Positions 19,506 to 58,970 of a stretch of DNA of 64,000 nucleotides are shown piece after piece. The stretch is from Armatimonadota bacterium. GTDB taxonomy: Bacteria; Armatimonadota; UBA5829; DSUL01. The stretch spans positions 2,159 to 66,158 of the forward strand of contig JBPOJE010000073.1 in the NCBI GenBank assembly GCA_052033935.1, given 5' to 3'. A model generated the notes under the pieces. It worked only from the letters and a program-made list of their open reading frames with translations. It had not been told where the DNA came from and did not search any database. How positions within the stretch are numbered: the first letter of the stretch is position 1; each line of letters opens with the position of its first letter. A program made the translations under genes and the position numbers.

Positions 19506-20513
19506 TCACGGTTCGGAAATACCCTCCTGCTCGGGAATGAGCGGCCCTGGGCTTTCGCCCTGCCAGTACGAGCCGGTTGTGACGATGTTCAAGCCGCCGT
19601 CGCCGCGCCGCAAGGCAACAAGGCAGCTCACGCCCCCGCTGCATAGCTCGGGTAGCTCCAAGCCTTCCTCTCCCAGCACGATGAGCGCTGTCGAGTACGC
19701 ATCGCAGAACGTGGCGTCCCGCGCGGCAACGGCCACCAGCACGGCACCCTGGGCGGGCCGGCCGGTTCGCGGGTCAATAATGTGGCCCACAACCTCGCCG
19801 TCTCGCATAACGGTCTTCCCGGCGGTGCACGAGACGCCCAGGCTGCTGTCGTAAAGCCAGGTCTCGGCGAGCACCCGGCCGGGTTCGTGCGGGTCCGGGT
19901 CCGCGACCGCCACGCGCCAGCCCCGGCTGTCGCTGTGAGTCCCGATTGCCGTCACGCTGCTCGTTCCGCCGTGAATAAGGGCCGACCGGACACCGCACTG
20001 CCTGAGAGCGGCCGCCGCGTTGTCGAGGGCTACCCCCTTGCCGACAGCCCCGAAGTCGAGTTCCACGCCGGGCCTGTCGAACGAGACCGTCCAGTCGTCC
20101 CCCCCGAGCTTGATGTGATGCGTCCCGGTGAGCGTGCGCGCCTCCTCAATCTCGGCGTCGGTACCCGGCTCGCGTTCGCCCGTCAGCCCCCAGGCGCGCA
20201 GAAGCGGGCGAACGGTGATGTCGAACGCGCCACCCGTGGCCATGCACATGGCGACAATGCGCTCCAAACGCAGCAGAGCCTCGTGACCGACCTTCACAGG
20301 ACGCAGTCCCGCGTGCTCGTTGATGTGGTAGGTCAGGCTGGAGGGGAGGTAGGCGCTGAACATCTCCTCGGCGCGCGATATTTCGTCCAACGCTTCTTCC
20401 CCGGCCGCGCGCAGGCGGTGGGGTTCAGCGCCGGTGAGTGCAATCTCAAAGCGCGTCGCCATCGCGTGCCGCGAAACCATAACCAGACTGCGGTCGTCCA
20501 TAGCTCGCATCAT
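19506..20513 (-). CDS. FAD:protein FMN transferase (ApbE family), no signal peptide
   Basis: 335 aa. DFGAVGKGVALD (DxGxxxKG motif) and overall ApbE-like sequence are present. The N-terminus is not signal-like, so it is probably cytoplasmic. Confidence 0.8.
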   Translation of the reverse strand: MMRAMDDRSLVMVSRHAMATRFEIALTGAEPHRLRAAGEEALDEISRAEEMFSAYLPSSLTYHINEHAGLRPVKVGHEALLRLERIVAMCMATGGAFDITVRPLLRAWGLTGEREPGTDAEIEEARTLTGTHHIKLGGDDWTVSFDRPGVELDFGAVGKGVALDNAAAALRQCGVRSALIHGGTSSVTAIGTHSDSRGWRVAVADPDPHEPGRVLAETWLYDSSLGVSCTAGKTVMRDGEVVGHIIDPRTGRPAQGAVLVAVAARDATFCDAYSTALIVLGEEGLELPELCSGGVSCLVALRRGDGGLNIVTTGSYWQGESPGPLIPEQEGISEP

Positions 20514-20604
20514 ACCAGAATGGCGCGGCGGGGCGCGAAAAAAGCCGGGGACACGGCCACGCCGTGCCCCCGGCTCCTGTCAGATATCTCTTTTCTGCCT
20601 GCGG

Positions 20605-21891
20605 CTAGACGATCTTCTTCTTGACCGGGTCGAAGTTCATCGTCTTGCCCTGTAGCCAGGCCATCTCGGCCAGGCAAACCACCGTCTGAACCTTGGCCGC
20701 GAGGTCAATGTTGCAGTTCGGGGTCTCACCGGTGCGGATGCAGTGGAACCAGTTGCGCTGATGCTCGCTCTGGCTCTCGCCGGGGCCTACGATCTCGACG
20801 TCTTCTTGATCAATCTCGTCCACGAACGGGCGCTGCGGCCTGATCTGAACCTTGCCGCCGCCGAAGTAGATGTCCGCCTTCGTTCCGCGGATAAGATCCT
20901 CGGGGCCGGTCTCGTTGACGGTGGATCCGATCAGGATCATCTGCGAGCCGTTAGGGAACTGCACGAGGCACTGAGTCGTGTCGGCCACGTCGCGGTCCGG
21001 GGTCGCAATGATCGAGCCGACGGTCATAACCTGCGTCGGATAGTCCGCGCCGCAGGCGATCATCAGCGGGTGCAGCCTGTGCGGGAACAGGTCCGACAGG
21101 ATGCCGGCGGAATACCGGCGATACTTGCGCCAGCGGAAGTAGTGCTCCGGATTCCACGGAATCTTCTTGCCCGTCTTGCCGAGCCACGCGTCCCAGTCGA
21201 GGTTCACGCCCGGCTTCGCGTCATCGTCAAAGCCGTAGTTCCACTCGCCGCCCGGATTGTTGCGGCAGTACCCGCCCTGACTCAGAACGACCTTGCCGAT
21301 CTTGCCCTTCTTGATCTGCTCGCCAGCGGTGCGCCACTTCGCGTCGCTGCAGCCCTGCGACCCGATCTGCACAACGCACTTTGTCCGCTTCGCGGTCTCG
21401 AGGAGCTGCTCGGTCTCTTTGAGGGTGCGGCACATCGGCTTCTCGATGTAGCAGTGAATGCCCTGCTCCATTGCGGCCAGCGCGATGGGTGCGTGCCAGT
21501 GCTCGGGGGTGCCGATGATGATGGCGTCCAAGCCCTTGATCTCGAGGACTTTCCTATAGTCGCGAAACGCCATGCTGGCGGGGAGGCCGGCGTTGTTACC
21601 ATTCGCCAGGGCGCGCTTGTCGAAGACATCGCAGACCGCGATGGACTTGACGTTCACCTCGGCGGGCTGCTCCTTGACCATGTTCACATGGCCGCCGCCC
21701 ATGCCTCCGACACCGATATGCCCGATGTTGATGCGGTCGTTCGCGCCGATCACGCGCGCGGGCGCGACCGCGTAAACGGGGCTCTTCGCCACCGACGTAA
21801 CCGCCAGGCCCGCCGCCGTAGCTCCGGCGGCCTTCAGAAAGTCCCTGCGCGAAAGATTCTTCGCGTCTGTGCTCTTCGTTTCCAGATCCAT
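20605..21891 (-). CDS. Gfo/Idh/MocA family oxidoreductase with twin-arginine (Tat) signal
   Basis: MDLETKSTDAKNLSRRDFLKAAGATAAGLAVTSVA (RRDFLK Tat motif), then NIGHIGVGGMGGGH (Rossmann) and ...YIEKPMC. Confidence 0.85.
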   Translation of the reverse strand: MDLETKSTDAKNLSRRDFLKAAGATAAGLAVTSVAKSPVYAVAPARVIGANDRINIGHIGVGGMGGGHVNMVKEQPAEVNVKSIAVCDVFDKRALANGNNAGLPASMAFRDYRKVLEIKGLDAIIIGTPEHWHAPIALAAMEQGIHCYIEKPMCRTLKETEQLLETAKRTKCVVQIGSQGCSDAKWRTAGEQIKKGKIGKVVLSQGGYCRNNPGGEWNYGFDDDAKPGVNLDWDAWLGKTGKKIPWNPEHYFRWRKYRRYSAGILSDLFPHRLHPLMIACGADYPTQVMTVGSIIATPDRDVADTTQCLVQFPNGSQMILIGSTVNETGPEDLIRGTKADIYFGGGKVQIRPQRPFVDEIDQEDVEIVGPGESQSEHQRNWFHCIRTGETPNCNIDLAAKVQTVVCLAEMAWLQGKTMNFDPVKKKIV

Positions 21892-21967
21892 TACCTATTA
21901 CCTTCCACAACACATGTCATTACTGCCGTCCGCCGGCGCTGCCGGCCAAACGTCACTACCTATGTAA

Positions 21968-23227
21968 TCAGGCGAGGTCGAACCACTCCTTCTGGAATGT
22001 GACCTTTGCGCCGTTCAGCAAGGCCTCATTCGCCTTGATTGCGCACACTGCGGCCGTGTAGCCCGCCTGAGGGCCGGCCTCTGGTTTCGCTCCGCCCCGG
22101 ACCGCGGCAGCGAACTCCTCCATGGCATAGTAGAGCGCATCCTTCCCCGCGTCAGCGGCCTCTTCGCCCGGCTCCTTGCCCTTCGCGATGATCTTGGTCG
22201 CGTTCGCGACGAGCGCGATGCCCGTCTCGTCGCCCACTTTCTCCTTGTGAGCGTACGGTTCCCACCCGAGCATGGCCGAGTCCACTTCCTTGACCATCCA
22301 GCCGCGCTCGCCTTTCAGCATGATCGCCGCCTCGCTTCCGTACAGGCACTCGTACGCGCCTTCGAACGAATTCGCGAGGGTTGCGTCGTAGAGGAAGTTC
22401 GTCTGCTCAGGATACTCGAACACAGCCTGCACTGTGTCGGCCATCTCCCGGCCGTCCGTCCACTTGCGGATGCCGCCGAACGACGTAACCGCCACGGGCA
22501 ACTGGTTGAGATACCAGTTCATGACATCCACCTGATGCACGCCAACCTCGGCCAACAGCCCGGCGCTCGTCGCTTTCGACAGCCGCCAGTTCAGTTCGGC
22601 CTCGCGCTCGGGCGTCGGCGCCATTCTGCGCCAACTCTGCTTCTTGTGCCACTGCGCCCGGCATTCGGCGATGGCACCCGGAACTCCGGCCTTCACGAAC
22701 GAAAACACATGCTTGTGCAGCGGGCTCGACCTCATCTGCAGCCCCGACTGAAACACCTGCTTCGCCGCCAATCCCGCCTTTGCGATCTCCTTCGCCTCTT
22801 CGAGGGTGCTGGCGATCGGCGACTCGCAGTAAACGTGCTTTCCAGCCGCAAGCGCGTCCAGAACAATCTGCTTGTGCCGATGGCTCGGCGTGGCGACGAT
22901 GACGGCCTCCACGCCCTGATGCTCCAGAAGCTGCTTGTAGTCCGTGAAGGACGTAGCCTTGGCGGCCGTCTCCAGAGCCCGCTTGGCGTAGGGCTCGTAG
23001 GTGTCGCAGATGGCGACAACGGACGCGGACGGCAGCTTCGCCAGCGCGGTCAGAATATCCCTGCCCTGCAGCCCGAGTCCGATGACCCCGATGCCCACCG
23101 GTGGGCCGGCCGGAGCGGGGGCCGCCGCCGCGTCCGCCAGAATTTCCTGATTCAGCAGAAAAACGCCGGCCGAAATCGCGCCCGCCCCGATAAGAAAATC
23201 GCGGCGCGAAATAGTGTCAGTGCTCAA
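21968..23227 (-). CDS. Gfo/Idh/MocA family oxidoreductase with Tat signal
   Basis: MSTDTISRRDFLIGAGAISAGVFLL (Tat), GIGVIGLGLQGRD (Rossmann), HVYCESP. Confidence 0.85.
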   Translation of the reverse strand: MSTDTISRRDFLIGAGAISAGVFLLNQEILADAAAAPAPAGPPVGIGVIGLGLQGRDILTALAKLPSASVVAICDTYEPYAKRALETAAKATSFTDYKQLLEHQGVEAVIVATPSHRHKQIVLDALAAGKHVYCESPIASTLEEAKEIAKAGLAAKQVFQSGLQMRSSPLHKHVFSFVKAGVPGAIAECRAQWHKKQSWRRMAPTPEREAELNWRLSKATSAGLLAEVGVHQVDVMNWYLNQLPVAVTSFGGIRKWTDGREMADTVQAVFEYPEQTNFLYDATLANSFEGAYECLYGSEAAIMLKGERGWMVKEVDSAMLGWEPYAHKEKVGDETGIALVANATKIIAKGKEPGEEAADAGKDALYYAMEEFAAAVRGGAKPEAGPQAGYTAAVCAIKANEALLNGAKVTFQKEWFDLA

Positions 23228-23422
23228 ATGTGCCTCCAGTTGTTATCTGCCGCACCCCCCGTGAACGCGAGGCACCGCGCCCCGCGCAACTATTATACTT
23301 CGCGGAACGAGGAGTTCATCCCTGCTGCAATGCGTGACCGATTGGCCCGCCGGCGCTCGCCGCCGCACTTAAGACCGCCGGCGAGCGCAAAACGGGACGC
23401 CGCCTTCGGTCCGCCTTGCCCG

Positions 23423-24583
23423 TCAGTACTTCACTTCCTCCCACTGCTTCGACTTGTTGGACTCGAGCACCGCCTCGACGATGGCAATCTCGTTGTGTCC
23501 GTCCACAAAGGTCGGGAAGGGGACCTTGCCGCCGTTCGGATCGCTGCCCTCGGCTACGAACGTATAGAACGCCTGCATGAAGTTCTTGAGCCCGTCTGGG
23601 TAGCCTTCCGGGTGCCCGCCGGGGTAGCCGGCGCAGGCCTTCGCCTCGGCCGACAGCAGCGAGGCGTCGCGCATCAGCACTTGGTTCGCGCTGTCCCTGC
23701 GGCCGATCCACAGCCGCTCCACGTCCTCCTGGTCGAAGGCGAACGCGGCGTTCTCGCAGTCAATCTCGTAGTACAGCCGGTTCTTGCGGCCCGCCGCAAC
23801 CTGGCAGACCGTAAACGTCCCGCGCGTGCCGCCGTCCATCTCGAACAGCACCGTTCCATAGTCTTCGGTCGTCACGGGCACCGGCTCGTAGTCTTCGGGC
23901 GTCAGTTCTTTGCCGGCGTAGGTCTCGATGGCCTTCTTCGGCTTCATGCGGGTCTTGTGGATCACCGCCAGGTCTGCATACACCCGCGTGATCTTCTGAT
24001 CCGTGATGTACATCAGCAAATCGCACCAGTGGCTGCCGACGTCGGCCACCGCGCGGCTTTCGCCGCCAGCCTCGGGCTCGATGCGCCAGTTGTAGTCGGT
24101 CGCCAGAAGCAGCCAGTCCTGCAGGTAGCTGCCGGTAATCACCAGCGGGCGGCCATACTCTCCCGACTGCACCCGCTGTCGGGTCTCCTGGTTCAGCGGA
24201 TAGAAACGGTAGTTGAAATCAACGGCGTTGATCTTGCCCGTCTCTTTTGCAAGCCGCACCAGCTCGGCCGACTCCTTCGAGTTCATCGCGAGCGGCTTCT
24301 CGCTGAAAACATGCTTGCCCGCCTTCAGCGCCTCCACCGCCAGCGGGTAGTGCAGCGTGTTCGGGGTACACAGGTGCACGACCTCGATGGAGGGGTCGGC
24401 GAGCAGCTTCTTGTAATCGCCGTACGCCTGGGCGACCGAAAGCTGCTTTGCCTTCGCGTCCGCCGTCACCTGGTCCATCTCCGCCAAAGCGGCGACCTCG
24501 ACGAAACCCAGCCGCCGCGCGGCCTCGATGTGCGCCGGGCCGATGAACCCGGTCCCGATGATGCCTGATCTGATCTTTCTCAT
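23423..24583 (-). CDS. Gfo/Idh/MocA family oxidoreductase (cytoplasmic)
   Basis: MRKIRSGIIGTGFIGPAHIEAARRL...GKHVFSEKPLA, with no signal peptide. Confidence 0.85.
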   Translation of the reverse strand: MRKIRSGIIGTGFIGPAHIEAARRLGFVEVAALAEMDQVTADAKAKQLSVAQAYGDYKKLLADPSIEVVHLCTPNTLHYPLAVEALKAGKHVFSEKPLAMNSKESAELVRLAKETGKINAVDFNYRFYPLNQETRQRVQSGEYGRPLVITGSYLQDWLLLATDYNWRIEPEAGGESRAVADVGSHWCDLLMYITDQKITRVYADLAVIHKTRMKPKKAIETYAGKELTPEDYEPVPVTTEDYGTVLFEMDGGTRGTFTVCQVAAGRKNRLYYEIDCENAAFAFDQEDVERLWIGRRDSANQVLMRDASLLSAEAKACAGYPGGHPEGYPDGLKNFMQAFYTFVAEGSDPNGGKVPFPTFVDGHNEIAIVEAVLESNKSKQWEEVKY

Positions 24584-24661
24584 CTTTGCTTCTCCTCAGA
24601 GTACGTTATTTGACGAATCTGAACTTCTCTTGCGGGGGCGCGTTGCCCTGCCCCGCGCCCG

Positions 24662-25753
24662 TTAGGCCGTCTGCTCCGTCCTGCGCCTGTTTCTGGCGTT
24701 TTCGATGATGCGCTCGATATCCGCGTCGTCAACGGCGCGCTCGAAGCTGCGGAAGCCCGACAGCCGGAACCCTTGCGACTCCGCCATCGCCGTTATCTCG
24801 TCCACCTGCTCCACCGACACGTCCTTGCCGAGCGTGAAGCTCTCGTAGCGCTCCGCCAGCGCGAGCGCCATCGTCTCGGACATGCAGGCGTACGCCTTGC
24901 CGGGCGGAAAACCGAAGTCGAAGTGGAAGTCCACTTCGCCGGGTGGGTCCACGATGCCGCCCTCGATCACCAGCACGTCGTCGCGCTCCCTCGCCACGCG
25001 GACAGACACATCCCTCGGCCGCGCGACGTCGCAGACGACCGCCCCAGGCTTCAGGTGGCCGGGCAGCACGATTGCGTCCACAGCGCTCGACACCGTCACG
25101 ACGATGTCCGCCGAAGGCAGGCTGTCCGCCACCGATGTGCTGATGCTCACGTGGGCCGCCGAGCCTTCGCGTATCTCGGCCGCGAGCGCTTCCAGCTTGT
25201 CCGGGCTGCGTCCCACAAGCACGATCTCGGGATAGTCCCGCGCTAGCAGCTTCGCGCAGGTCTTTCCGATGGAGCCGGTCGCCCCCACAATCGCCACGCG
25301 CGCTTCGTGCTGGGGAACCTCGAGCATCTCCGCGGCGCGCCTGGCGCCCTGAACCGCGGCCGCCACAGTGTAGCTGTTGCCGGTCGTAATGGCGATGTTC
25401 ACCCTCTTGCTGAGCGTCACGCCGCCGTCGCCCACCACCGACGTGAACGCGCCGAGCCCCATAATCTTCGCGCCCCGCTCCTCGGCCAGCCGCGCCGCAA
25501 TCACAAGCCGCTTCCACACCTCCTCCTCGGGCAGCGAAAGGAGCTGGCGTGGCGTCAGCGGACAGGCGATGAACCAGCCCTCGGCCTCGGTCCCGCCGGC
25601 CGCGCGAACGCCTGTGATGTGGCTTACGACAAACGGATCCTTGTGCTTGATGGCCCATTCGACCAAGCGGTCGGGCAGGTACTTCGCGACCGGGTACTGC
25701 CGCGCGACGTCCTTCGCGTTCAGGGGGTGTATGATGAAGGCAAATCGTTCCAT
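24662..25753 (-). CDS. acyl-ACP reductase (AAR)-like NAD(P)-binding protein (shikimate-DH-like N-domain + Rossmann domain)
   Basis: MERFAFIIHPLNAKDV...GLGAFTSVV...ITTGNSYTVAAAV...VAIVGATGSIGKTCAKLLA. These parallel the cyanobacterial acyl-ACP reductase segments as I recall them (FGLIGHL..., ALGGFTSI, FTTGNTHTAYV, VAVVGATGDIGSAV). The assignment rests on recalled family similarity only. Confidence 0.55.
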   Translation of the reverse strand: MERFAFIIHPLNAKDVARQYPVAKYLPDRLVEWAIKHKDPFVVSHITGVRAAGGTEAEGWFIACPLTPRQLLSLPEEEVWKRLVIAARLAEERGAKIMGLGAFTSVVGDGGVTLSKRVNIAITTGNSYTVAAAVQGARRAAEMLEVPQHEARVAIVGATGSIGKTCAKLLARDYPEIVLVGRSPDKLEALAAEIREGSAAHVSISTSVADSLPSADIVVTVSSAVDAIVLPGHLKPGAVVCDVARPRDVSVRVARERDDVLVIEGGIVDPPGEVDFHFDFGFPPGKAYACMSETMALALAERYESFTLGKDVSVEQVDEITAMAESQGFRLSGFRSFERAVDDADIERIIENARNRRRTEQTA

Positions 25754-25775
25754 AGGGTAAGCGGGTGGCGTCTTT

Positions 25776-26579
25776 CTACTCTGACGCCTCCGGGGCCTTT
25801 GCAGGTTCGGCAGGCTTGCGCTTGTGCGCCAGGAACCAGTCGTACAGCTCCTGATTGTTGTACGCCTCGGTCCACGAGTCGTGCCCGGCCTCGGGATACA
25901 CGGTGAACTTCACCTCTGGCGCGCCCGCATTCTTCAGCGCCGCCACCATGTCCTCGGAACGCTTGATCGGCACGGTGGTGTCCTTCGCGCCGTGGAACAC
26001 CCAGACGGGCATATCCTTGATAGCCCCAACGGTGAACGCGTTCCCGCCGCCGCAGATGGGCGCGATGGCGGCGAAGCGCTGAGGATCCGCGATGGCCAGA
26101 GCCCATGTGCCGAATCCGCCCATGCTCAGCCCGGTCAAATAGACGCGGTCCTTATCAATCCGGTAGTTGTCCGCAAGCTCATCGAGCAGCGCAAAGAGCG
26201 TGTCCAGCTTGCTGTCCCACCAGACTCCTTCCGGGCACTGCGGAGCGGCGACTATAAACGGGAAGTCACCCTTTGCCTCCGCCACCTTGATGGGGCCGTG
26301 GATCTTCACCTTCTGCACGTCGTTTCCACGCTCGCCCGCTCCGTGCAGAAAGAGAATCAGCGGCCAGCGCTTGTCGCTGTCCGCAGTGTAGTCTTTCGGC
26401 AGAAACAGGAGGTAGTTCGCGCCCACCGACAGCGTAATCCTGCGCTCGAAGCTCTTTGCGCTGACACCGGTGGCGCCGGAGTCCTGCGCCCGGGAAGGCA
26501 GCGCCGCCAGAACGAGAACCAGAATCATCAATGCGAGAACCATGCCCGCGCCCTTTCCATATCCGTGCATCATATTCAT
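25776..26579 (-). CDS. secreted alpha/beta-hydrolase (phospholipase/carboxylesterase-like, GLSMGG nucleophile elbow)
   Basis: Start ATG 26579 (MNMMHGYGKGAGMVLALMILVLVLAALPSRA signal) overlaps the upstream stop by 4 nt (ATGA). LILFLHGAGERG, YLTGLSMGGFGTW, HGAKDTTVP are present. The track ORF 25776..27182 is an artefactual extension. Confidence 0.8.
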   Translation of the reverse strand: MNMMHGYGKGAGMVLALMILVLVLAALPSRAQDSGATGVSAKSFERRITLSVGANYLLFLPKDYTADSDKRWPLILFLHGAGERGNDVQKVKIHGPIKVAEAKGDFPFIVAAPQCPEGVWWDSKLDTLFALLDELADNYRIDKDRVYLTGLSMGGFGTWALAIADPQRFAAIAPICGGGNAFTVGAIKDMPVWVFHGAKDTTVPIKRSEDMVAALKNAGAPEVKFTVYPEAGHDSWTEAYNNQELYDWFLAHKRKPAEPAKAPEASE

Positions 26580-27484
26580 AAATCGGTAACCTCCGGTTTC
26601 CAGCGGAGTTCTTTCAGCATGCGGCTGAAGTCGTCCGGCGTCAAGCCACGCGCGTCTTTGCCTGAGGCCGCCACGATCGCCGCTTCCATTACGTTTGTGC
26701 CCGGTGAGCGCCCCCCGAAGGCGGGGGTTGTCGTGATGAGCCGCTTCGCGCCGCGGCTTGCAATCTCGTCCCGGAACTCCGCCGTGGTCGTGTTGGTGAT
26801 AATCGTCTTGCCCGCGAGCGACCCTTCGCCCTCCGGCATGCGCCGGCGGATCATGTGCCGGTCCCCCGCGATGACATCCGCCCACGAGTATGCCCACCCG
26901 AACCGCGGGCGCGCCACATCCTGTTTCGCTCCTGTCGGATAGAGCCACCGGAACGGCAGCCTCACCGCCACCGGTAGGATGAGCGCGGCGAGCGGCCTGA
27001 CTAGGCGAAACGACCGGATCGGAATCGGCAGCCCTAGCGCAAACATCAGGTCGCCGTAGATGGCCGGGCCGCCGCAGGCGGCGATCTCCTCGGCCATCCC
27101 GAACCTGTCCACCGCACACACCATCAGCGTGTTCACCTCGCCGAAATGCACAATGCCGCGCGCGTTGAGATAGCGGACGCACTCGCGCTCCAGCGTGTTC
27201 TTAAGCCCGCTTCCGTCCACGACCGGCGTCTGCTTCACCAGAGCCGCGAGCTTGCTGATCTCGCGGAACGTATAGCGCCGCCCGTCTGCGTAAACGTACA
27301 TATCGGCACCGCCAAGCCCGATAGCATCCGCCTTGCCATCCAGCTCGCGGAGCTTTGCGGCGTAATCGGTGAGGCTGCCGTTCGTGCCGGCGCGGCTGAT
27401 CTCAATGTCCTGCCCTAGATAGCGGACCGTCGTCTGAAAGTCACCCTTCGCGCTTCCGAGACTTACGCTCACGACCTTCTTCAT
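26576..27484 (-). CDS. conserved hypothetical protein (family not confidently recognised)
   Basis: 302-aa ORF MKKVVSVSLGSAKGDFQTTVRYLGQDIEISRAGTNG...DAIGLGGADMYVYADGRRYTF. It is translationally coupled (4-nt overlap) to the downstream esterase. Confidence 0.5.
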   Translation of the reverse strand: MKKVVSVSLGSAKGDFQTTVRYLGQDIEISRAGTNGSLTDYAAKLRELDGKADAIGLGGADMYVYADGRRYTFREISKLAALVKQTPVVDGSGLKNTLERECVRYLNARGIVHFGEVNTLMVCAVDRFGMAEEIAACGGPAIYGDLMFALGLPIPIRSFRLVRPLAALILPVAVRLPFRWLYPTGAKQDVARPRFGWAYSWADVIAGDRHMIRRRMPEGEGSLAGKTIITNTTTAEFRDEIASRGAKRLITTTPAFGGRSPGTNVMEAAIVAASGKDARGLTPDDFSRMLKELRWKPEVTDL

Positions 27485-27652
27485 GTCAGCAGGTATTATA
27501 CAGGTTTACCGCCGCGAAAGGGAGTGGTGTGCGATCCGCCTCACGCTCCATCGCCGTTGGGGTTGAGCTGTTCTTGCGCGGCAGGGGCGACCACATGCCG
27601 CCATGAATCCACGTCGTGGCTTATCTCCTGAGTCCGCCTCTCTCAGCCGGTC

Positions 27653-53407: not shown

Positions 53408-54287
53408 TTCGCGAAGGAGCAGCTGTGAGGTATGCCTTTGTTGCTGTACACAGGAAGGAGTTCCCCCTGAGTCTTCTGTGCCGGGTTCTTGGGGTATCCA
53501 GGAGCGGCTACTTTGCGTGGCGCGGCCGTCCTGAGAGCCGCCGGGAGCGTGAGAACCGGATTCTTCTTGAGCGGATCAAGGCGACCCATAGGTCGGGAAG
53601 GAAGATGTATGGTAGCCCTCGGATTCACCGGAAGCTCGTGTCGGAGGGGGTGCTGTGCGGCCGTGTCCGGGTGGAGCGCTTGATGCGCGTGAATGGGATC
53701 CGTGCGCAACGGAAGCGGCGGTTCGTGGTGACGACGGACTCGGGGCACGGCCTGCCGGTTTCTGAGAACATTCTTGGCCGTGAGTTCGCGGTGGGCGAGC
53801 CGAACCGTGTATGGGCATCGGACATCACTTATGTTCCGACGGATGAGGGCCGGCTGTATCTGGCGGGCGTTCTGGACCTGGGGATGAAGGGAGTAGTATG
53901 GGCGAGAGTCTGGACAGGACACTGGCGATGGATGCCTTGACGATGGCGTATCATCGTCGTAGGCCGGGCGAGGGACTGCTCCATCATTCGGATCGGGGTA
54001 GTCAGTATGCGAACCGGGACTACTAGGCTCTGCTGAGCGCGTATGGGATGCGCTCAAGTATGAGCCGGAAGGGGGACTGCTGGGACAATGCACCGATGGA
54101 GAGCTTCTTCGCGACACTGAAGAAAGAGCTGATCCACGGGCGAAGGTTCCGAACCCGGGAACAGGCCCGGCGAGAGATCTTCGAATACATCGAGGTGTTC
54201 TACAACCGGGAGCGGCTGCACTCCAGCTTGGGGTATGTCTCGCCCGCGGACTACGAACGGCAGCTTGCCGTCAAAGAGGCGGCTTAG
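53389..54287 (+). pseudogene. IS3 family transposase OrfB (DDE integrase core), disrupted by a frameshift (~53905) and an in-frame TAG (54024-54026)
   Basis: The -1 frame from the A7G site gives ...RVWASDITYVPTDEGRLYLAGVLDLGMKGVV. After a shift it continues ...[68 protein letters not shown]...[19 protein letters not shown] (track ORFs 53425..53940 and 54048..54287). Confidence 0.75.
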
Positions 54288-54341
54288 GGTGTCCACGAAA
54301 ACATGGGAGGTCCAATTGTGGTCCGAGAGGAGACCTTCAGG

Positions 54342-55256
54342 ATGAAATGTCTATCAGTCCGCGTGGTGCTTGTTCTTGTGTGGTTGCTTTCGGCTTGCTC
54401 CATAGCCTCAGCAGCCACGGTTCCTGATTGGTTGGTGAGGCCGGGAACCATCGGGCACGCTCTGTCCCTTAGCCACGCTCTGTCCCTTAGCGATGGATCC
54501 CAAGTATGCCTTCATGTGGTGGTCGTGGACAAGATCCACTTCAGGCAGAAGCCGGTCTATTTCACAGTCCGCGAATGCTTCGACTGGAAGTCGTGCCTGA
54601 TCGTTTACGGACAACCTTCGCCCCTGCTACGGCACGGGCAGACAATAGACATCGAGGGAACCCTGACAACGCTCCCGAACGGGCATAGGGCGATTGTAAG
54701 GCCGAAAGTATCAGGTTATGTGGACAAAGCGGGTAAGCTCCTCTACCACGGACCGCTCATAAAGTGGCCTTGGTCTCGGACGGAATGGGAGTGGAAGACC
54801 GACCTCACCGTTGTGGAAGCAGTTGACCAGGCTTCCTATACGCTTTCGGATACCGGGACTCCTCCTGATGAGCCGATTACTAACTCCACTTCCGGCCCGG
54901 TCTTCTGTGCGACAATCGCCGATGCGCGAGCACAGTATAGCCCAACCGAGCGGGTGCTTGTGGAGCTTCAGTGCAGGCCGCTTGAGAATCCGGTTTCAGG
55001 CTCTTTCACGTTGAAAGAGGACGGTGGCGCGGATAGCATTACCATCTACTACACGGGTTCCGTAGCGGCTTCCGACAGGATTAACAAGCTCGTCGGTGCC
55101 ATACAGAGAGACGCTGGAACCAACTATTGGATTGAGGTGGACTCCGGCCCAACTGGCAATCGCAAGATCCTATTGGAAGCGTACATACCGCTACAAGCGG
55201 AACCATCGCATGGGCAAAGACATTTGCGGACACCACTACATTGCCTGCGCCACTGA
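54342..55256 (+). CDS. hypothetical secreted protein (lower-GC island)
   Basis: Signal MKCLSVRVVLVLVWLLSACSIASA. It contains an 18-bp perfect tandem duplication (HALSLSHALSLS). It is possibly the N-terminal part of one larger gene continuing in 55241..57121. Confidence 0.5.
   Translation: MKCLSVRVVLVLVWLLSACSIASAATVPDWLVRPGTIGHALSLSHALSLSDGSQVCLHVVVVDKIHFRQKPVYFTVRECFDWKSCLIVYGQPSPLLRHGQTIDIEGTLTTLPNGHRAIVRPKVSGYVDKAGKLLYHGPLIKWPWSRTEWEWKTDLTVVEAVDQASYTLSDTGTPPDEPITNSTSGPVFCATIADARAQYSPTERVLVELQCRPLENPVSGSFTLKEDGGADSITIYYTGSVAASDRINKLVGAIQRDAGTNYWIEVDSGPTGNRKILLEAYIPLQAEPSHGQRHLRTPLHCLRH
54456..54491 (+). repeat. perfect 18-bp tandem duplication (2 copies) inside coding sequence
   Basis: CACGCTCTGTCCCTTAGC at 54456-54473 is repeated exactly at 54474-54491. 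Confidence 0.9.
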
Positions 55257-57121
55257 GCGGAAAAGTAGTATCGCGCACGTTCCCTTGGCTCGGTTACTTC
55301 TACATTCTGGGGATGGCATCGTTCGTGGCCACGGGTGACACTGTCGATGTGGAAGGGGAGTTGGCGACAGACGATGGGGAGCGCGTAGTCGACGCCTCGT
55401 CCACTACGCTTGTTGATATTGCGTCCGTCGCGTCGGTGGGCTTGAATGGCCGTTCGTTGGCAGGTGGGAATTTCAATGTGTTCACCCCCGGAGCCCACGG
55501 TGCGTATGGCCTGAACAATGTTGGTTTGCTTGTTGGTGTTTGGGGCAGAGTGACCGCTGTCGGCTCCGACTATTTCTACCTTGATGACGGCTCTAATTGC
55601 GACGATGGTTCCGGGTCTGGCGGGGTGAGAGTTGTCAACGTGTCTGGTTATATGCCAGGTGCCGATGACTACGTTGCCGTAACAGGCGTCTCAGGTCTTG
55701 CCACGTATGACACTGATCTTGCCAGAACTGTCCGGTTAGCCCGCACCGTCGATCTTTCCGGTATCTGCCCGACTCTTCCGCCGGCTAACTTGACCGTTGC
55801 TCCAACGGGCAGCGGGAAGCTCACTCTATACTGGAGCGGTGTGTGCGGAGCGACAGGCTATAACGTCTATCGAGGCACGATTTCCGGTGGTGAAAACTAC
55901 TATACGCCTGTCAATGGTGGAACTCCGGTAACCACAGAGAGCTACTCCGGTAGTGGTGTCTATACCTATACGGATACCGCGCTGACCGACGGAGTCGAGT
56001 ATTTCTACACGGTAAAGGCTGTGGGTGGGTGTGGCGAGAGTCAAGCGTCGGAAGAGGACAGCTGCATTCCTGATCCAAACGGTGCGCCGTGGGATACTGG
56101 TGATGTTGCAGCAATCTTGGCCTCCATCAGGAATTCGTTCCCCGGGGTTTCAATACCATACGGCTGCATCCGGGCACGAGGGCCGGACGGAAGAGATTAT
56201 CTGGACGGGATTAGCAGTCCAATCATACCTGACGTCACAATCGATCCCACGACGAGAGATGTAGTCTTTTCCGACGGAACCAGAATTGCAGCACCGAATG
56301 ATATTGCCGACATTGACTCATACACGCTTGGGTCAATGCAGATCCTTACAACGATCGAACCGAGAATAAAGAACGCCCAATCCGGGCCATTCAGAAAGGT
56401 CTACACTCACCATAACTATCGTGGAGTAAAAGGTCGTTTCCGGCTTCCTGACTCGAGTGTCGGCATCAGAGTCACGCCTTACACGTACCCTTCCACCGGA
56501 AAGAGCACCAAGGACATACCCTATGTGTATCTTGGCGGGCTTGGCAATCGCTACACCGCCGTTGATGCGGGGCTGTACTGGGGGCCAACGGCTAACGACC
56601 CGCAAAGCCGTTGGAGAATGTTTGGCAAGATCAAGAACTCCAAGAGAGACGAGTGGATTAACACGCCTCCAAATGGGATCTTTGACGATAATCAAGATGT
56701 CAACGCTGAGTACATAGCCTCAAGCATAGTTAATGGCCGGGTGCTGCTGAGAATAACACCAGTTGGCGGAGGTCAGACTGGGGTTATCACGATAGACATA
56801 TCGGATTTCGCAAAGACGGGGCAAGGTGTCCACCTGAAGCGTGTCCATTCGATTGCCCAAAACAATCTCATTGGAACAGACAAGGCCAAGGGATACCGAG
56901 AAACGGGGTCATATTTCCAGTCCAGTGCCTGGTTTGATGGCCAGGTAATGGATCAGAATGGAACATACAGCAACTGGGGCACCTCGCAAACACCCTACTC
57001 GACATATCATGGCAGGTTTCCTAACCTCTCCAGCATCGTCAGTTTCCAACTGCAGTTTCCACAGAACCTCTATCCGTCGAAATGTTTCTCAGGTGATCTC
57101 TATGTGCACATCACCCTGTGA
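55241..57121 (+). CDS. secreted fibronectin-type-III domain protein with recurrent FYLDDGS...GVRV module (lower-GC island)
   Basis: ANLTVAPTGSGKLTLYWSGVCGATGYNVYRGTISGG...YTDTALTDGVEYFYTVKAV is an FN3 domain. GLNNVGLLVGVWGRVTAVGSDYFYLDDGSNCDDGSGSGGVRV is the shared module. The track start TTG 55241 has no signal peptide. The frame is open from 55136 and overlaps the upstream ORF end, so a frameshift fusion is possible. Confidence 0.5.
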   Translation: MPAPLSGKVVSRTFPWLGYFYILGMASFVATGDTVDVEGELATDDGERVVDASSTTLVDIASVASVGLNGRSLAGGNFNVFTPGAHGAYGLNNVGLLVGVWGRVTAVGSDYFYLDDGSNCDDGSGSGGVRVVNVSGYMPGADDYVAVTGVSGLATYDTDLARTVRLARTVDLSGICPTLPPANLTVAPTGSGKLTLYWSGVCGATGYNVYRGTISGGENYYTPVNGGTPVTTESYSGSGVYTYTDTALTDGVEYFYTVKAVGGCGESQASEEDSCIPDPNGAPWDTGDVAAILASIRNSFPGVSIPYGCIRARGPDGRDYLDGISSPIIPDVTIDPTTRDVVFSDGTRIAAPNDIADIDSYTLGSMQILTTIEPRIKNAQSGPFRKVYTHHNYRGVKGRFRLPDSSVGIRVTPYTYPSTGKSTKDIPYVYLGGLGNRYTAVDAGLYWGPTANDPQSRWRMFGKIKNSKRDEWINTPPNGIFDDNQDVNAEYIASSIVNGRVLLRITPVGGGQTGVITIDISDFAKTGQGVHLKRVHSIAQNNLIGTDKAKGYRETGSYFQSSAWFDGQVMDQNGTYSNWGTSQTPYSTYHGRFPNLSSIVSFQLQFPQNLYPSKCFSGDLYVHITL

Positions 57122-57137
57122 TAGGATTGCTGCATCC

Positions 57138-58262
57138 ATGATACTGCTTTCTGCTCTTGCTGCTGCCAGCGTTGCGCACGCCCTGGATTTCCCATCATCC
57201 GCCGTCGTATACTCGACGGCGGCGACGGCCAGAAAACCTTCGCGACTCATAGTCTGCACATACCCGGGGGGGGTGTCAACAGAGGTCAAGATGAAGCAGG
57301 CTGAAGGAGCGCGAATGGGAGATGACATCCGAGCCCCCGTGTTCTCTCCCAACGGCAAAACCGTGTTAGTCACTGCAAACCGCACAAGCGCAGATAGGAA
57401 AACAACCGTGAGCCCCGATTCTACACCGGGTCTTGACCTATGGACCGTTGATTTACAGAGATCGACGGCTGCGCCGCTGACTCACGATGCTTGCGGATAC
57501 GAAAACTACTCCTGGTCGCCAGACGGGAATTACATCTGCTCGATCTCTTGCAACGGCGTTCAGGACGAGCACCCGATGGCTGACACTGGCACAACCGCAT
57601 TCCTCTACCTGTGGAACGCGCACAAACCAGTTAAGAAGCTGATCGGCCTCGAGGCTGTCGATTATGGATGGTCAAGTGACAGCAGGAGAGTATATCACAC
57701 TGGTAGCGCATATAGCGTCAAATTGCCTCATGACAGGAGAGCAAGCTTTATATACGCGGATATCCAACAGGGCAGATCTTTCCTCTACTTCAGTTCAGAT
57801 AATGACTTGTATTCGGGCACATGGTCTTCCAACGGCAAGCTGTTGGCCTACTGCGAGTCTAGCGAGACGGGCTATGGCATCAGCATTCTGCGCAAGGGAG
57901 AGAAGAATCCACGTCGATTCCTGAACACCGAGTTGCCTTTGCATCCGTGGTGGTCGCCTGACGGCAGGAAAGTTGCCTTCTTGGAGAGTGTTCCACATCA
58001 AGAAGGAGGCGAATACCTCAACAAGCTGCGAATCCTGGACGTAGTATCAGGAAAGACTACGGACCTGTGGTCGGTACGCGGCGAAGCAACCATTCTCGGG
58101 TGGACGAGGGACAGCCAATGGGTCGTGGCCAGTCGCTTCCAGTCCCTTGCACCGGACTGGCTAGGGGAAGTTGTTGCATGCTGTATCGGCAGACCGGAAT
58201 TGACTGTGACGTTGTGCTCGCCTGTGGAGAGAGTCACTGCCTTTGACTGGATCCAGCGATAG
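57138..58262 (+). CDS. TolB-like WD40/PD40 beta-propeller repeat protein, secreted (lower-GC island)
   Basis: Signal MILLSALAAASVAHA. PD40 repeats are FSPNGKTV, WSPDGNYI, WSSDSRRVY, WSSNGKLLAY, WSPDGRKVAF. An alternative start is ATG 57102. Confidence 0.65.
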   Translation: MILLSALAAASVAHALDFPSSAVVYSTAATARKPSRLIVCTYPGGVSTEVKMKQAEGARMGDDIRAPVFSPNGKTVLVTANRTSADRKTTVSPDSTPGLDLWTVDLQRSTAAPLTHDACGYENYSWSPDGNYICSISCNGVQDEHPMADTGTTAFLYLWNAHKPVKKLIGLEAVDYGWSSDSRRVYHTGSAYSVKLPHDRRASFIYADIQQGRSFLYFSSDNDLYSGTWSSNGKLLAYCESSETGYGISILRKGEKNPRRFLNTELPLHPWWSPDGRKVAFLESVPHQEGGEYLNKLRILDVVSGKTTDLWSVRGEATILGWTRDSQWVVASRFQSLAPDWLGEVVACCIGRPELTVTLCSPVERVTAFDWIQR

Positions 58263-58602
58263 CAGGGCGGTGTGCGCAATTTTGCTGCCAAGCAGGAGCT
58301 TATGGAGACACTTGCCTACCGTGGCGCAAACCCGTGGATTTTGCGCTGCTCGTTCCACAGCATCGGCAACTGCTTCGTCAGCATCGTCAGCGACAGCCCA
58401 CTCGGCTCCTCGCCCATCAGGATCGACTCAACAATGTCCGGCGCAAGAAACGTGAGCCGCAGCAACCGGGCTGCAAACTGGACGGAACCCCTTCAATCCG
58501 GCCGGGCGCGACCGCACGGCTGCCCGGGCGGCGAAAACTTCTCGCTCTCCAGCGCCGTATTATACGCATGTAGGGTAGAATAGAGTGTGCTTCAATCCAC
58601 GT

Positions 58603-58970
58603 GGGGGCGATAGGTCTCGACAGGGAGCTTTGAAGCGCGGTCTGCGAGTCGAGGCGCCGCTGGCCTCGTAAAAAGCGGCAAAAAACATAAACGCGAACAC
58701 TAACAACTATAGCTACGCGCTCGCTGCCTAACTAAAGGGCAGCCGTCCGGCCCTCCTTAGCTGGAGAGGAGGTCACCGGGCGTTGATAAATCCGGCTTGC
58801 TCCGCCTAGGCGTCCACTGGGGGCGGAGGACTCAAAAAGAGGACTGGCTAGAAGGCGCGAGCCCCGCCCGCGGGGATTGCTTTCGGCGAGATAACAAACG
58901 CGGGAAACACTCGTAGAGGGCCGTGCGTTCGGTTTTCTGGACCCGGGTTCGAATCCCGGCGCCTCCACCA
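58603..58970 (+). ncRNA. ssrA: tmRNA (transfer-messenger RNA)
   Basis: 5' GGGGGCG pairs with the 3' CGCCUCC-ACCA acceptor stem. The T-arm GGGTTCGAATCCCGG precedes the CCA end. The internal reading frame GCGAACACTAACAACTATAGCTACGCGCTCGCTGCCTAA encodes the tag peptide ANTNNYSYALAA*. Confidence 0.9.

Follow-up and report, generated by a model that had tools for sequence, protein, structure and literature searches.

Thioester reductases of the acyl-ACP (acyl carrier protein) reductase (AAR) fold are used for biofuel and amine biocatalysis, and to our knowledge studies so far cover only AAR of cyanobacteria and a small number of domains from natural-product pathways (PigE, TamH). Here we describe a relative encoded in a 64,000-nucleotide stretch of an Armatimonadota genome (assembly GCA_052033935.1, contig JBPOJE010000073.1, positions 2,159–66,158; hereafter the window, with coordinates counted from its first letter), where three minus-strand genes encode, in order of transcription, an unannotated protein labelled DUF here, a secreted carboxylesterase, and an AAR-like protein, AARL. 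Comparative sequence evidence leads us to favour, with moderate confidence, a reading in which DUF and AARL together constitute a conserved two-protein reductase converting acyl-thioesters to aldehydes, found as a single chain in other phyla and probably directed at lipids.

Cyanobacterial AAR (EC 1.2.1.80; model TIGR04058; PDB 6jzq/6jzy) resembles AARL in its two-domain architecture, GATG(D/S)IG loop, TTGN motif and catalytic cysteine, and its ping-pong acyl-enzyme mechanism would be expected for AARL as well. The catalytic role of this cysteine in the S. elongatus enzyme (Cys294) has been described (PMC9594044; bioRxiv 10.1101/2024.10.28.620694). Unlike AAR, AARL has an Armatimonadota host, no gene for an aldehyde-deformylating oxygenase (ADO), and a dedicated DUF partner that the cyanobacterial enzyme lacks. 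The closest sequence relatives of AARL are PigE, with its N-terminal reductase domain, and the class-III transaminase fusions with a C-terminal reductase domain, namely TamH, KecF/PP_2782 and proteins of Thermaerobacter and Thermincola. The PigE N-domain and TamH C-domain have been described as AAR-like thioester reductases, and the chemistry proposed for this group, from thioester to aldehyde, is the same as that considered here for AARL (PMC8341465, PMC9594044). Transaminase domains of the TamH/KecF/Thermaerobacter/Thermincola type accept both aliphatic and aromatic aldehydes (PMC10829540, PMC6498172). Free C12-CoA was not a substrate of the reductase domain of TamH (PMC9594044). In contrast to PigE, TamH and KecF, the AARL of the window is a stand-alone protein with no transaminase in its operon, and lies outside any polyketide synthase (PKS), nonribosomal peptide synthetase (NRPS) or pigment cluster. 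No DUF partner has been described for the published fusions of this type, and the supplement of PMC10829540 yielded nothing usable on DUF-type neighbours of Tmar_2123 and Tfer_2018. Similarly, no description of DUF or of the DUF-AARL pair was found in the literature searched.

The original prediction, made from the sequence alone, had described the three minus-strand genes and their short junctions correctly, and these can be listed as follows:

26576–27484, minus strand: DUF gene, 302 residues (open reading frame, ORF).
25776–26579, minus strand: gene of the secreted carboxylesterase, 267 residues if the ATG at 26579 is the start (ORF and alpha/beta-hydrolase matches).
24662–25753, minus strand: AARL gene, 363 residues, of the AAR/PigE-N family, a predicted NAD(P)H-dependent aldehyde-forming acyl-thioester reductase (ORF and models).
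26576–26579, minus strand: ATGA, in which the DUF stop (TGA) overlaps the presumed esterase start (ATG) (sequence reading).

A 22-nt spacer separates the esterase stop from the AARL start.

Judging by its profile matches, AARL is a member of the AAR/PigE-N/TamH-C thioester-reductase superfamily (COG5322), homologous over both the N-terminal and Rossmann domains. It matches the PigE model NF053554 with 206 bits (9e-61; residues 37–358 on model positions 41–362, the reductase region), and among solved structures it aligns with PigE (PDB 4ppm, 2.6e-33, over 4ppm residues 47–352) and with AAR (PDB 6jzq, 1.8e-24, AARL residues 12–330 on 6jzq 13–335). Its score against the acyl-ACP reductase model TIGR04058 (110.2 bits, E 1.3e-31) is below the curated cut-off of 449.7 bits, and AARL is therefore not an equivalog of cyanobacterial AAR. 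The parallel with AAR drawn in the original prediction thus holds for the AAR/PigE-N superfamily, including the cofactor and cysteine motifs, but not for orthology, the closest relative by these scores being the thioester-reductase domain of PigE. The level of a PigE-type equivalog is not reached (206 bits against a cut-off of 850) and Pfam returns no Aminotran_3 match for AARL. Three motifs connect the protein to its characterised relatives:

25265–25285, minus strand: GATGSIG, AARL residues 157–163, the dinucleotide-binding loop (aligned with GATGDIG of AAR).
24872–24892, minus strand: YACMSET, AARL residues 288–294, containing Cys290, the predicted acyl-enzyme nucleophile (aligned with FACFAEA of S. 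elongatus AAR and GCMAET of PigE).
25367–25387, minus strand: TTGNSYT, AARL residues 123–129, a domain-junction motif (common to AAR, as TTGNTHT, and to the terminal amidation domain, TAD, as Thr-Thr-Gly).

Residues G157, G160, G163, C290, T123, G125 and N126 are invariant across 42 AARL homologues (alignment A2).

These assignments bear upon the names given by source databases, which are inconsistent and unsupported. DUF is called 'quinate 5-dehydrogenase', DUF-AARL fusion proteins are called 'serine carboxypeptidase' or 'dehydrogenase' (NCBI), and AARL appears as 'shikimate dehydrogenase', 'predicted amino acid dehydrogenase', 'fatty aldehyde-generating acyl-ACP reductase', or '3-hydroxyacyl-CoA dehydrogenase'. 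That the names pointing to a quinate/shikimate dehydrogenase, an amino-acid dehydrogenase or a glutamyl-tRNA reductase are correct is highly improbable. Beyond the names themselves, such an identity can call upon the match of AARL to PF01488 Shikimate_DH (44.8 bits), which covers only residues 148–255, a generic NAD(P) domain. The specific models score far lower than their cut-offs, 22 bits against 200 for AroE (TIGR00507) and 40 against 209.6 for HemA (TIGR01035), whereas over its full length AARL best matches PigE-N and AAR and conserves the catalytic cysteine, and DUF is without a dinucleotide loop. A best fit of AARL to another NAD(P) family such as these, lacking conserved gene linkage, had been named at the outset as the outcome that would overturn the AAR-like assignment; the scores point the other way, and the linkage of DUF to AARL is conserved. 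The statement that no ADO partner is present was likewise borne out, with none among the genes flanking the operon, and with a tblastn search using one ADO query sequence giving a best E of 0.6 in the window (chance level) and none at E ≤ 1e-3 in the comparison loci L001–L169.

What had been missed is that the upstream protein looks like an obligate partner, with a modelled AAR-like fold of its own. DUF has no Pfam or NCBIfam match and no sequence match in the PDB by phmmer or profile searches. Its homologues number over 7,900 (1,273 representatives at 50% identity), none of which carries a Pfam domain. Two motifs stand out in the family:

27182–27220, minus strand: VDGSGLKNTLERE, DUF residues 89–101, the most conserved stretch of the family (alignment A1).
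27095–27112, minus strand: VDRFGM, DUF residues 125–130, with D126, R127, F128 and G129 invariant in alignment A1.

In the first of these D90, G91, S92, G93, K95, E99 and R100 are invariant in A1, and the motif is kept in fusion proteins as TPVVDG..LK.TLER. An AlphaFold2 (AF2) model of DUF built from 42 sequences (predicted local distance difference test, pLDDT, 93; predicted template-modelling score, pTM, 0.90) shows a two-lobe alpha/beta protein with a strand at residues 119–121 followed by a helix at 128–137, so that VDRFGM, placed by secondary structure, would sit where a Rossmann fold has its Gly-rich dinucleotide loop. A Foldseek search with this model gave the highest template-modelling (TM) scores to cyanobacterial AAR (0.49), the best structural neighbour, and to TAD (0.48). 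Sugar-binding or periplasmic-binding-protein-like folds were best by E-value, with TM scores of merely 0.30–0.37, and because the two rankings disagree we describe the DUF fold as closest to AAR without considering homology proven. Profile–profile comparison of the DUF and AARL families detected no sequence homology (probability 0.1%), leaving structure as the sole basis for a relation, and a common ancestry of DUF and AAR is no more than plausible. TAD is itself an AAR relative that binds NAD and has an invariant cysteine and the Thr-Thr-Gly motif (bioRxiv 10.1101/2024.10.28.620694). In NRPS/PKS systems (CarI; PDB 9e4s/9e4u) it forms a C-terminal megasynthase domain that retains both GxGxxG and the cysteine. 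DUF, unlike TAD, has neither motif, and is free-standing or fused N-terminally. Indeed, no G.G..G-type loop and no invariant cysteine are conserved in the DUF family, position 123 being Cys, Ser, or Ala, and DUF would therefore be unable to perform AAR chemistry by itself.

One line of evidence for a functional pair is the linkage of the two genes across genomes. A genome scan with the DUF alignment retrieved 80 loci (Armatimonadota, many Bacillota lineages, and some Actinomycetota), 69 of which had enough downstream DNA for analysis. AARL lies directly downstream on the same strand in 32 of the 69 and elsewhere within the locus in 7, and is absent from 30. The reverse, AARL-centred scan of 64 metagenome loci placed DUF directly upstream in 32, in a DUF-esterase-AARL arrangement in 3, and 2–7 kb away in 5, with the remaining 24 lacking DUF. 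Since a simple ORF caller selects antisense ORFs in high-GC loci, neighbour clusters were used only where tblastn or Pfam agreed. Directly adjacent pairs occur in both Armatimonadota and Bacillota, where the usual order is coaX-dus-(HTH)-DUF-AARL-greA-lysS with birA and bioY further upstream, and the window shows the same DUF-upstream-of-AARL arrangement with one inserted gene. In L086 AARL is found without DUF at this ancestral locus (coaX-dus-AARL). Operon conservation, one of the checks suggested initially, thus extends across phyla for DUF and AARL but is confined to the clade of the window for the esterase. Other genes recur near the pair. A 180-residue protein with an N-terminal helix-turn-helix (HTH) and no NCBIfam family is encoded directly 5' of DUF in L076 (9447–9989) and 29 other Bacillota loci (e.g., L018:9466–9987), and could be either a regulator of DUF-AARL or a third element conserved with it. 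Near DUF, 12 loci (among them L001:5091–5666 and L002:5160–5735, both on the minus strand) encode a response regulator whose output domain is an RNA-binding ANTAR domain; in L001, L002, L105 and L112 it lies divergently upstream of DUF. In L001 (1–2097, on a 5-Mb contig), LuxE-like (a weak match) and LuxC-like acyl-protein synthetase/reductase genes located 4–6 kb upstream of the pair represent another aldehyde-forming system in the neighbourhood.

Further evidence is provided by natural fusions, in which DUF (N-terminal) and AARL (C-terminal) form a single chain, as in proteins P0267, P0312, P0359 and P0364. A search with P0312 returned at least 120 independent clusters of such fusions, 600–850 residues long, and those bearing a taxon name belong to Anaerolineae/Chloroflexota, Blastocatellia/Acidobacteriota, Wallbacteria and Riflebacteria. 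The window proteins are 41–47% (AARL) and 29–38% (DUF) identical to the fusion modules, and domain order in the fusions equals gene order in the operons. The AF2 model of P0312 is compact (pLDDT 88, pTM 0.71) with a short ordered linker. The fusions, their matching order and this compact model are strong comparative evidence that DUF and AARL act together, and where the two are separate polypeptides a physical DUF:AARL complex may be envisaged from the fusions and the model. AARL could instead be a self-sufficient fatty acyl-ACP reductase of the AAR type, with DUF unrelated to it or a mere regulator sharing the operon, and this would be in keeping with cyanobacterial AAR working without such a partner, with the AARL genes that lack DUF (L086 and the 24 of 64 metagenome loci) and with the DUF genes that lack AARL (30 of 69). 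Fusion in so many independent clusters with gene order kept, the compact model with its short linker and the persistence of DUF-AARL adjacency across phyla are difficult to reconcile with a solitary AARL, which we regard as quite unlikely. A different kind of fusion is seen in P0316 (762 residues), where DUF is joined C-terminally to an alpha-oxoamine synthase of the BioF/Kbl/SPT type (212 bits against the bioF model, below its cut-off). The alpha-oxoamine synthase class also uses acyl-thioesters, and in P0316 DUF is therefore, by these matches, linked to an acyl-thioester-using enzyme of a second type.

The genes surrounding the fusions point to the likely substrate class, since lipid- or aldehyde-related neighbours were present at all six fusion loci inspected. 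In L167 (Acidobacteriota) the fusion is followed by an SDR of the NAD_binding_4/thioester-reductase type and a PlsC acyltransferase, and in L170 by an SDR 77% identical to that of L167. In L168 the genes after the fusion encode an SDR of the epimerase family, PlsC, a protein resembling SCP2 (20.8 bits, slightly under the cut-off of 21.3), WS/DGAT (408 bits against a cut-off of 310) and a patatin. The fusions of L169 (Wallbacteria) and L171 are preceded by a divergent alpha/beta hydrolase and followed by phasin and PhaR, while in L172 the fusion comes after Fe-ADH, aldehyde:ferredoxin oxidoreductase and patatin genes. As an analogy in logic only, a reductase encoded together with an epimerase-family SDR and an AGPAT-like acyltransferase brings to mind the ether-lipid loci of myxobacteria (ElbD/ElbE; MXAN_1675/1674; PMC9131029). 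The Elb reductase is a FAR (NAD_binding_4) domain rather than an AAR fold and has no DUF, and the pair in the window is flanked by nothing similar. A second type of context involves transamination. In L050 (Symbiobacteriaceae) and L056 (Bacillota) DUF is followed directly by a class-III transaminase-AARL fusion with the domain order of TamH, KecF and the Thermaerobacter/Thermincola proteins. L072 (Symbiobacteriaceae) has an AARL match at the same offset, and a separate class-III transaminase and an SRPBCC protein lie between DUF and AARL in L026, an Actinomycetota metagenome-assembled genome (MAG). Taken together, the fusion neighbours and transaminase variants suggest that a hydrophobic acyl-thioester would be reduced to an aldehyde, from which an alcohol or ester would be made in some lineages and an amine in others.

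Several observations weigh against a lipid-directed two-protein reductase. For DUF and AARL alike, about 40% of the genes lack a partner within 8–10 kb (including L002, L003 and L086), so that either protein may work alone or have its partner elsewhere. Roughly 40 DUF residues, many of them polar, are invariant in alignment A1, a pattern that suits an enzyme or ligand binder more than a passive scaffold. The pair is located among housekeeping genes (coaX, dus, greA, lysS, birA, bioY) in Armatimonadota and Bacillota, none of the genes flanking it in the window is a lipid gene, and the lipid context is drawn from six fusion loci only. Such features could suit a housekeeping small-molecule pathway, in which a short or polar acyl-thioester would be reduced to a semialdehyde and, in some lineages, transaminated. 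In two phyla the pair keeps its place between coaX-dus(-HTH) and greA-lysS, close to birA and bioY, the class-III transaminase is fused or adjacent in L050, L056 and L026, P0316 joins DUF to an oxoamine synthase, and distribution is very wide, with over 7,900 matches for each of DUF and AARL. We nonetheless judge a housekeeping pathway unlikely. Synteny of housekeeping genes extends over a long range in the coaX-dus/greA-lysS block, and location within it is by itself barely informative; fusions elsewhere adjoin genes for FAR-type SDR, PlsC, WS/DGAT, SCP2, patatin and phasin, not cofactor genes; lipid-binding SRPBCC and SCP2 proteins accompany the pair; and the characterised relatives AAR, PigE and TamH all use hydrophobic acyl chains. 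A more specific role related to CoA or biotin, prompted by coaX, birA and bioY synteny and the BioF-like fusion, was also considered, and as no pathway step requiring a thioester reductase was found it is retained as a rival of low probability.

The homology and motifs of AARL, its linkage and fusion to DUF, the DUF fold, and the neighbourhoods described above are the observed basis of the two-protein reductase, for which the chemistry, substrate class, physical complex and role of DUF may be pictured as follows. AARL would be the catalytic subunit, accepting the acyl group of a phosphopantetheine thioester (acyl-ACP or acyl-CoA) on Cys290. The acyl-enzyme would then be reduced by NAD(P)H bound at G157-x-x-G160-x-x-G163, with release of the free aldehyde as in cyanobacterial AAR, and NADPH would be the likely cofactor because an Arg follows strand β2 as in AAR. 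DUF would most likely serve as a non-redox partner that docks the substrate or a carrier, hands off the aldehyde, or has a regulatory function. For the substrate, a hydrophobic acyl chain of the fatty or hydroxy-fatty kind is most likely, and the enzymes consuming the aldehyde would be lineage-specific, namely a FAR-type SDR, a PlsC-type acyltransferase, and WS/DGAT in Acidobacteriota and L168, and a class-III transaminase in Symbiobacteriaceae/Bacillota loci and the Actinomycetota MAG. A much bolder extension, which we consider doubtful, would make DUF-AARL a widespread and so far unrecognised means by which bacteria produce fatty aldehydes from acyl-ACP or acyl-CoA, with DUF a degenerate AAR-fold paralogue turned obligatory non-redox subunit. 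In lineages where FAR-type SDR, PlsC-like and WS/DGAT enzymes follow, it would supply the synthesis of lipids derived from fatty alcohols, either wax esters or alkyl ether lipids, by a way distinct from the Elb, Agps and Ger routes, for example in Blastocatellia.

Beyond cyanobacteria, most members of the AAR-fold reductase family are accompanied by a second protein that lacks annotation. For annotation, these findings concern a family without assignment that is adjacent or fused to a reductase in taxa of at least seven phyla, and thousands of annotations would be corrected. If DUF and AARL do cooperate, DUF would represent a new type of subunit for aldehyde-forming reductases, giving reason to retest isolated inactive domains such as the TamH reductase domain (PMC9594044) with a DUF-type partner. 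The pair would also be a candidate source of fatty aldehydes or alcohols, and perhaps of ether or wax lipids, in poorly studied phyla.

The gene inserted between DUF and AARL in the window was initially recognised as a signal-peptide alpha/beta hydrolase, which its family matches (Peptidase_S9 at 8e-16, Abhydrolase_2, DLH and Esterase_PHB in Pfam/NCBIfam) and its GLSMGG nucleophile elbow (residues 150–155) confirm. The signal peptide spans approximately residues 1–31, and candidate catalytic Asp and His residues lie in GAKDT (197–201) and AGHDS (231–235), respectively. Besides the ATG at 26579, in-frame ATGs at 26573, 26570 and 26543 are also possible starts, and only the longer N-termini supply a Lys-containing n-region ahead of the hydrophobic core MVLALMILVLVLAALPSRA/QD. 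The nearest solved structures are a T. maritima esterase (3doh, 7e-42), 3wyd and 4q82, and the protein is also close to the metagenomic LC-Est1C. Its scores are below the cut-offs for extracellular polyhydroxyalkanoate depolymerases (NF050058, 77 against 150 bits; TIGR01840, 50 against 108; NF050057, 40 against 270), and by its sequence matches the protein is a generic carboxylesterase.

An esterase gene at the DUF/AARL junction is limited to the clade of the window, comprising the window itself, L004 (an Armatimonadota MAG) and L087, both about 95% identical to it, and L084, L085, L088 and L089, in which the esterases are 63%, 56% (signal peptide included), 62% and 56% identical, respectively. 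None of the fusions has it, nor do the 64 further pairs in which DUF and AARL are immediate neighbours. The pairing with a secreted esterase had been taken as a hint of a fatty aldehyde/alcohol or lipid-remodelling module. Resting as it did on a clade-confined gene, this argument is unsupported as stated, while a lipid or aldehyde role draws independent support from the fusion neighbourhoods. A single lipid-remodelling unit of three genes, with the esterase releasing acyl or alcohol moieties for the reductase or processing its product, has in its favour the ATGA overlap and 22-nt spacer, retention of the esterase at the junction down to about 64% DUF identity (L084, L085) and 73% AARL identity (L088, L089), and the recurrence of alpha/beta hydrolases or patatin, which adjoin the fusions of L169, L171 and L172 and lie downstream of AARL in L085. 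These fusion-associated hydrolases are of other families (Abhydrolase_1, patatin), however, and in other lineages the junction is occupied by secreted or membrane genes of unrelated kinds. Moreover, a signal peptide is present on the esterase both in the window and in L085, whereas neither DUF nor AARL has one and both are cytoplasmic, and this export signal makes a functional link to the pair less likely. Together with the absence of the esterase from so many pairs and all fusions, these features render an integral esterase improbable.

Other inserts at the junction include a membrane protein (L012), the transaminase and SRPBCC genes of L026, and two secreted proteins in L104, L105, L110 and L112, metagenome loci of another clade. 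The latter (L104:5575–7679 and equivalents) are paralogous repeat proteins, HAF-repeat-like by eye, at least one having a signal-peptide-like N-terminus, and with these inserts the junction seems to accept genes of secreted proteins. An insertion at the level of species was considered for the esterase and rejected, since orthologues occupy the same junction in L084, L085, L088 and L089. From its distribution, the esterase gene was inserted specifically in the Armatimonadota clade to which the window belongs, and is not a core component of the DUF-AARL system.

The esterase is probably co-transcribed with DUF and AARL, and two further elements may delimit the transcript:

27495–27500, minus strand: TATAAT hexamer, 10 nt 5' of the DUF start codon (sequence reading).
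24636–24660, minus strand: GC-rich hairpin directly 3' of the AARL stop, with a 7-bp GC stem and no U-tract (fold).

The hexamer is a possible –10 box, which would give a near-leaderless three-gene transcript, and was unreported by a consensus promoter scan for lack of a –35 match. The hairpin is a possible operon end. Promoter and terminator scans of the locus gave nothing above shuffled background, the folds of both intergenic regions were no better than shuffles (z = –1.26 for the whole post-AARL intergenic region on the hairpin side), and Rfam reported no RNA element close to the operon.

On either side of the operon, the window encodes three oxidoreductases of the Gfo/Idh/MocA type, ApbE, a protein with an FGE-sulfatase domain, a sugar ABC transporter, and a 5'-nucleotidase. 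The three Gfo/Idh/MocA genes are consecutive and precede the ApbE flavin-transferase gene at 19506–24583 (minus strand), directly downstream of AARL, with no evident link to the pair. One of them (20605–21891) has a Tat signal by Pfam, and another (21968–23227) a Tat-like N-terminus by eye. As is typical of high-GC DNA, very long ORFs of up to 773 residues run antisense to real genes (e.g., 22247–24568, plus strand) and are not themselves genes. A 468-residue ORF (25776–27182) similarly stretches the esterase frame across the DUF gene, and such ORFs mislead simple ORF callers. Further away, a tmRNA gene is located at 58603–58970 (plus strand; Rfam 183 bits), with the tag peptide ANTNNYSYALAA according to ARAGORN. 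Immediately 5' of it lies a low-GC stretch (53425–58300; 0.53–0.57 against approximately 0.63 elsewhere) that contains an IS3-type transposase fragment (HTH_21 domain only, 53425–53940) and large ORFs at 54303–55256, 55241–57121 and 56958–58262, at least one with an N-terminal hydrophobic segment, and that looks like an acquired island.

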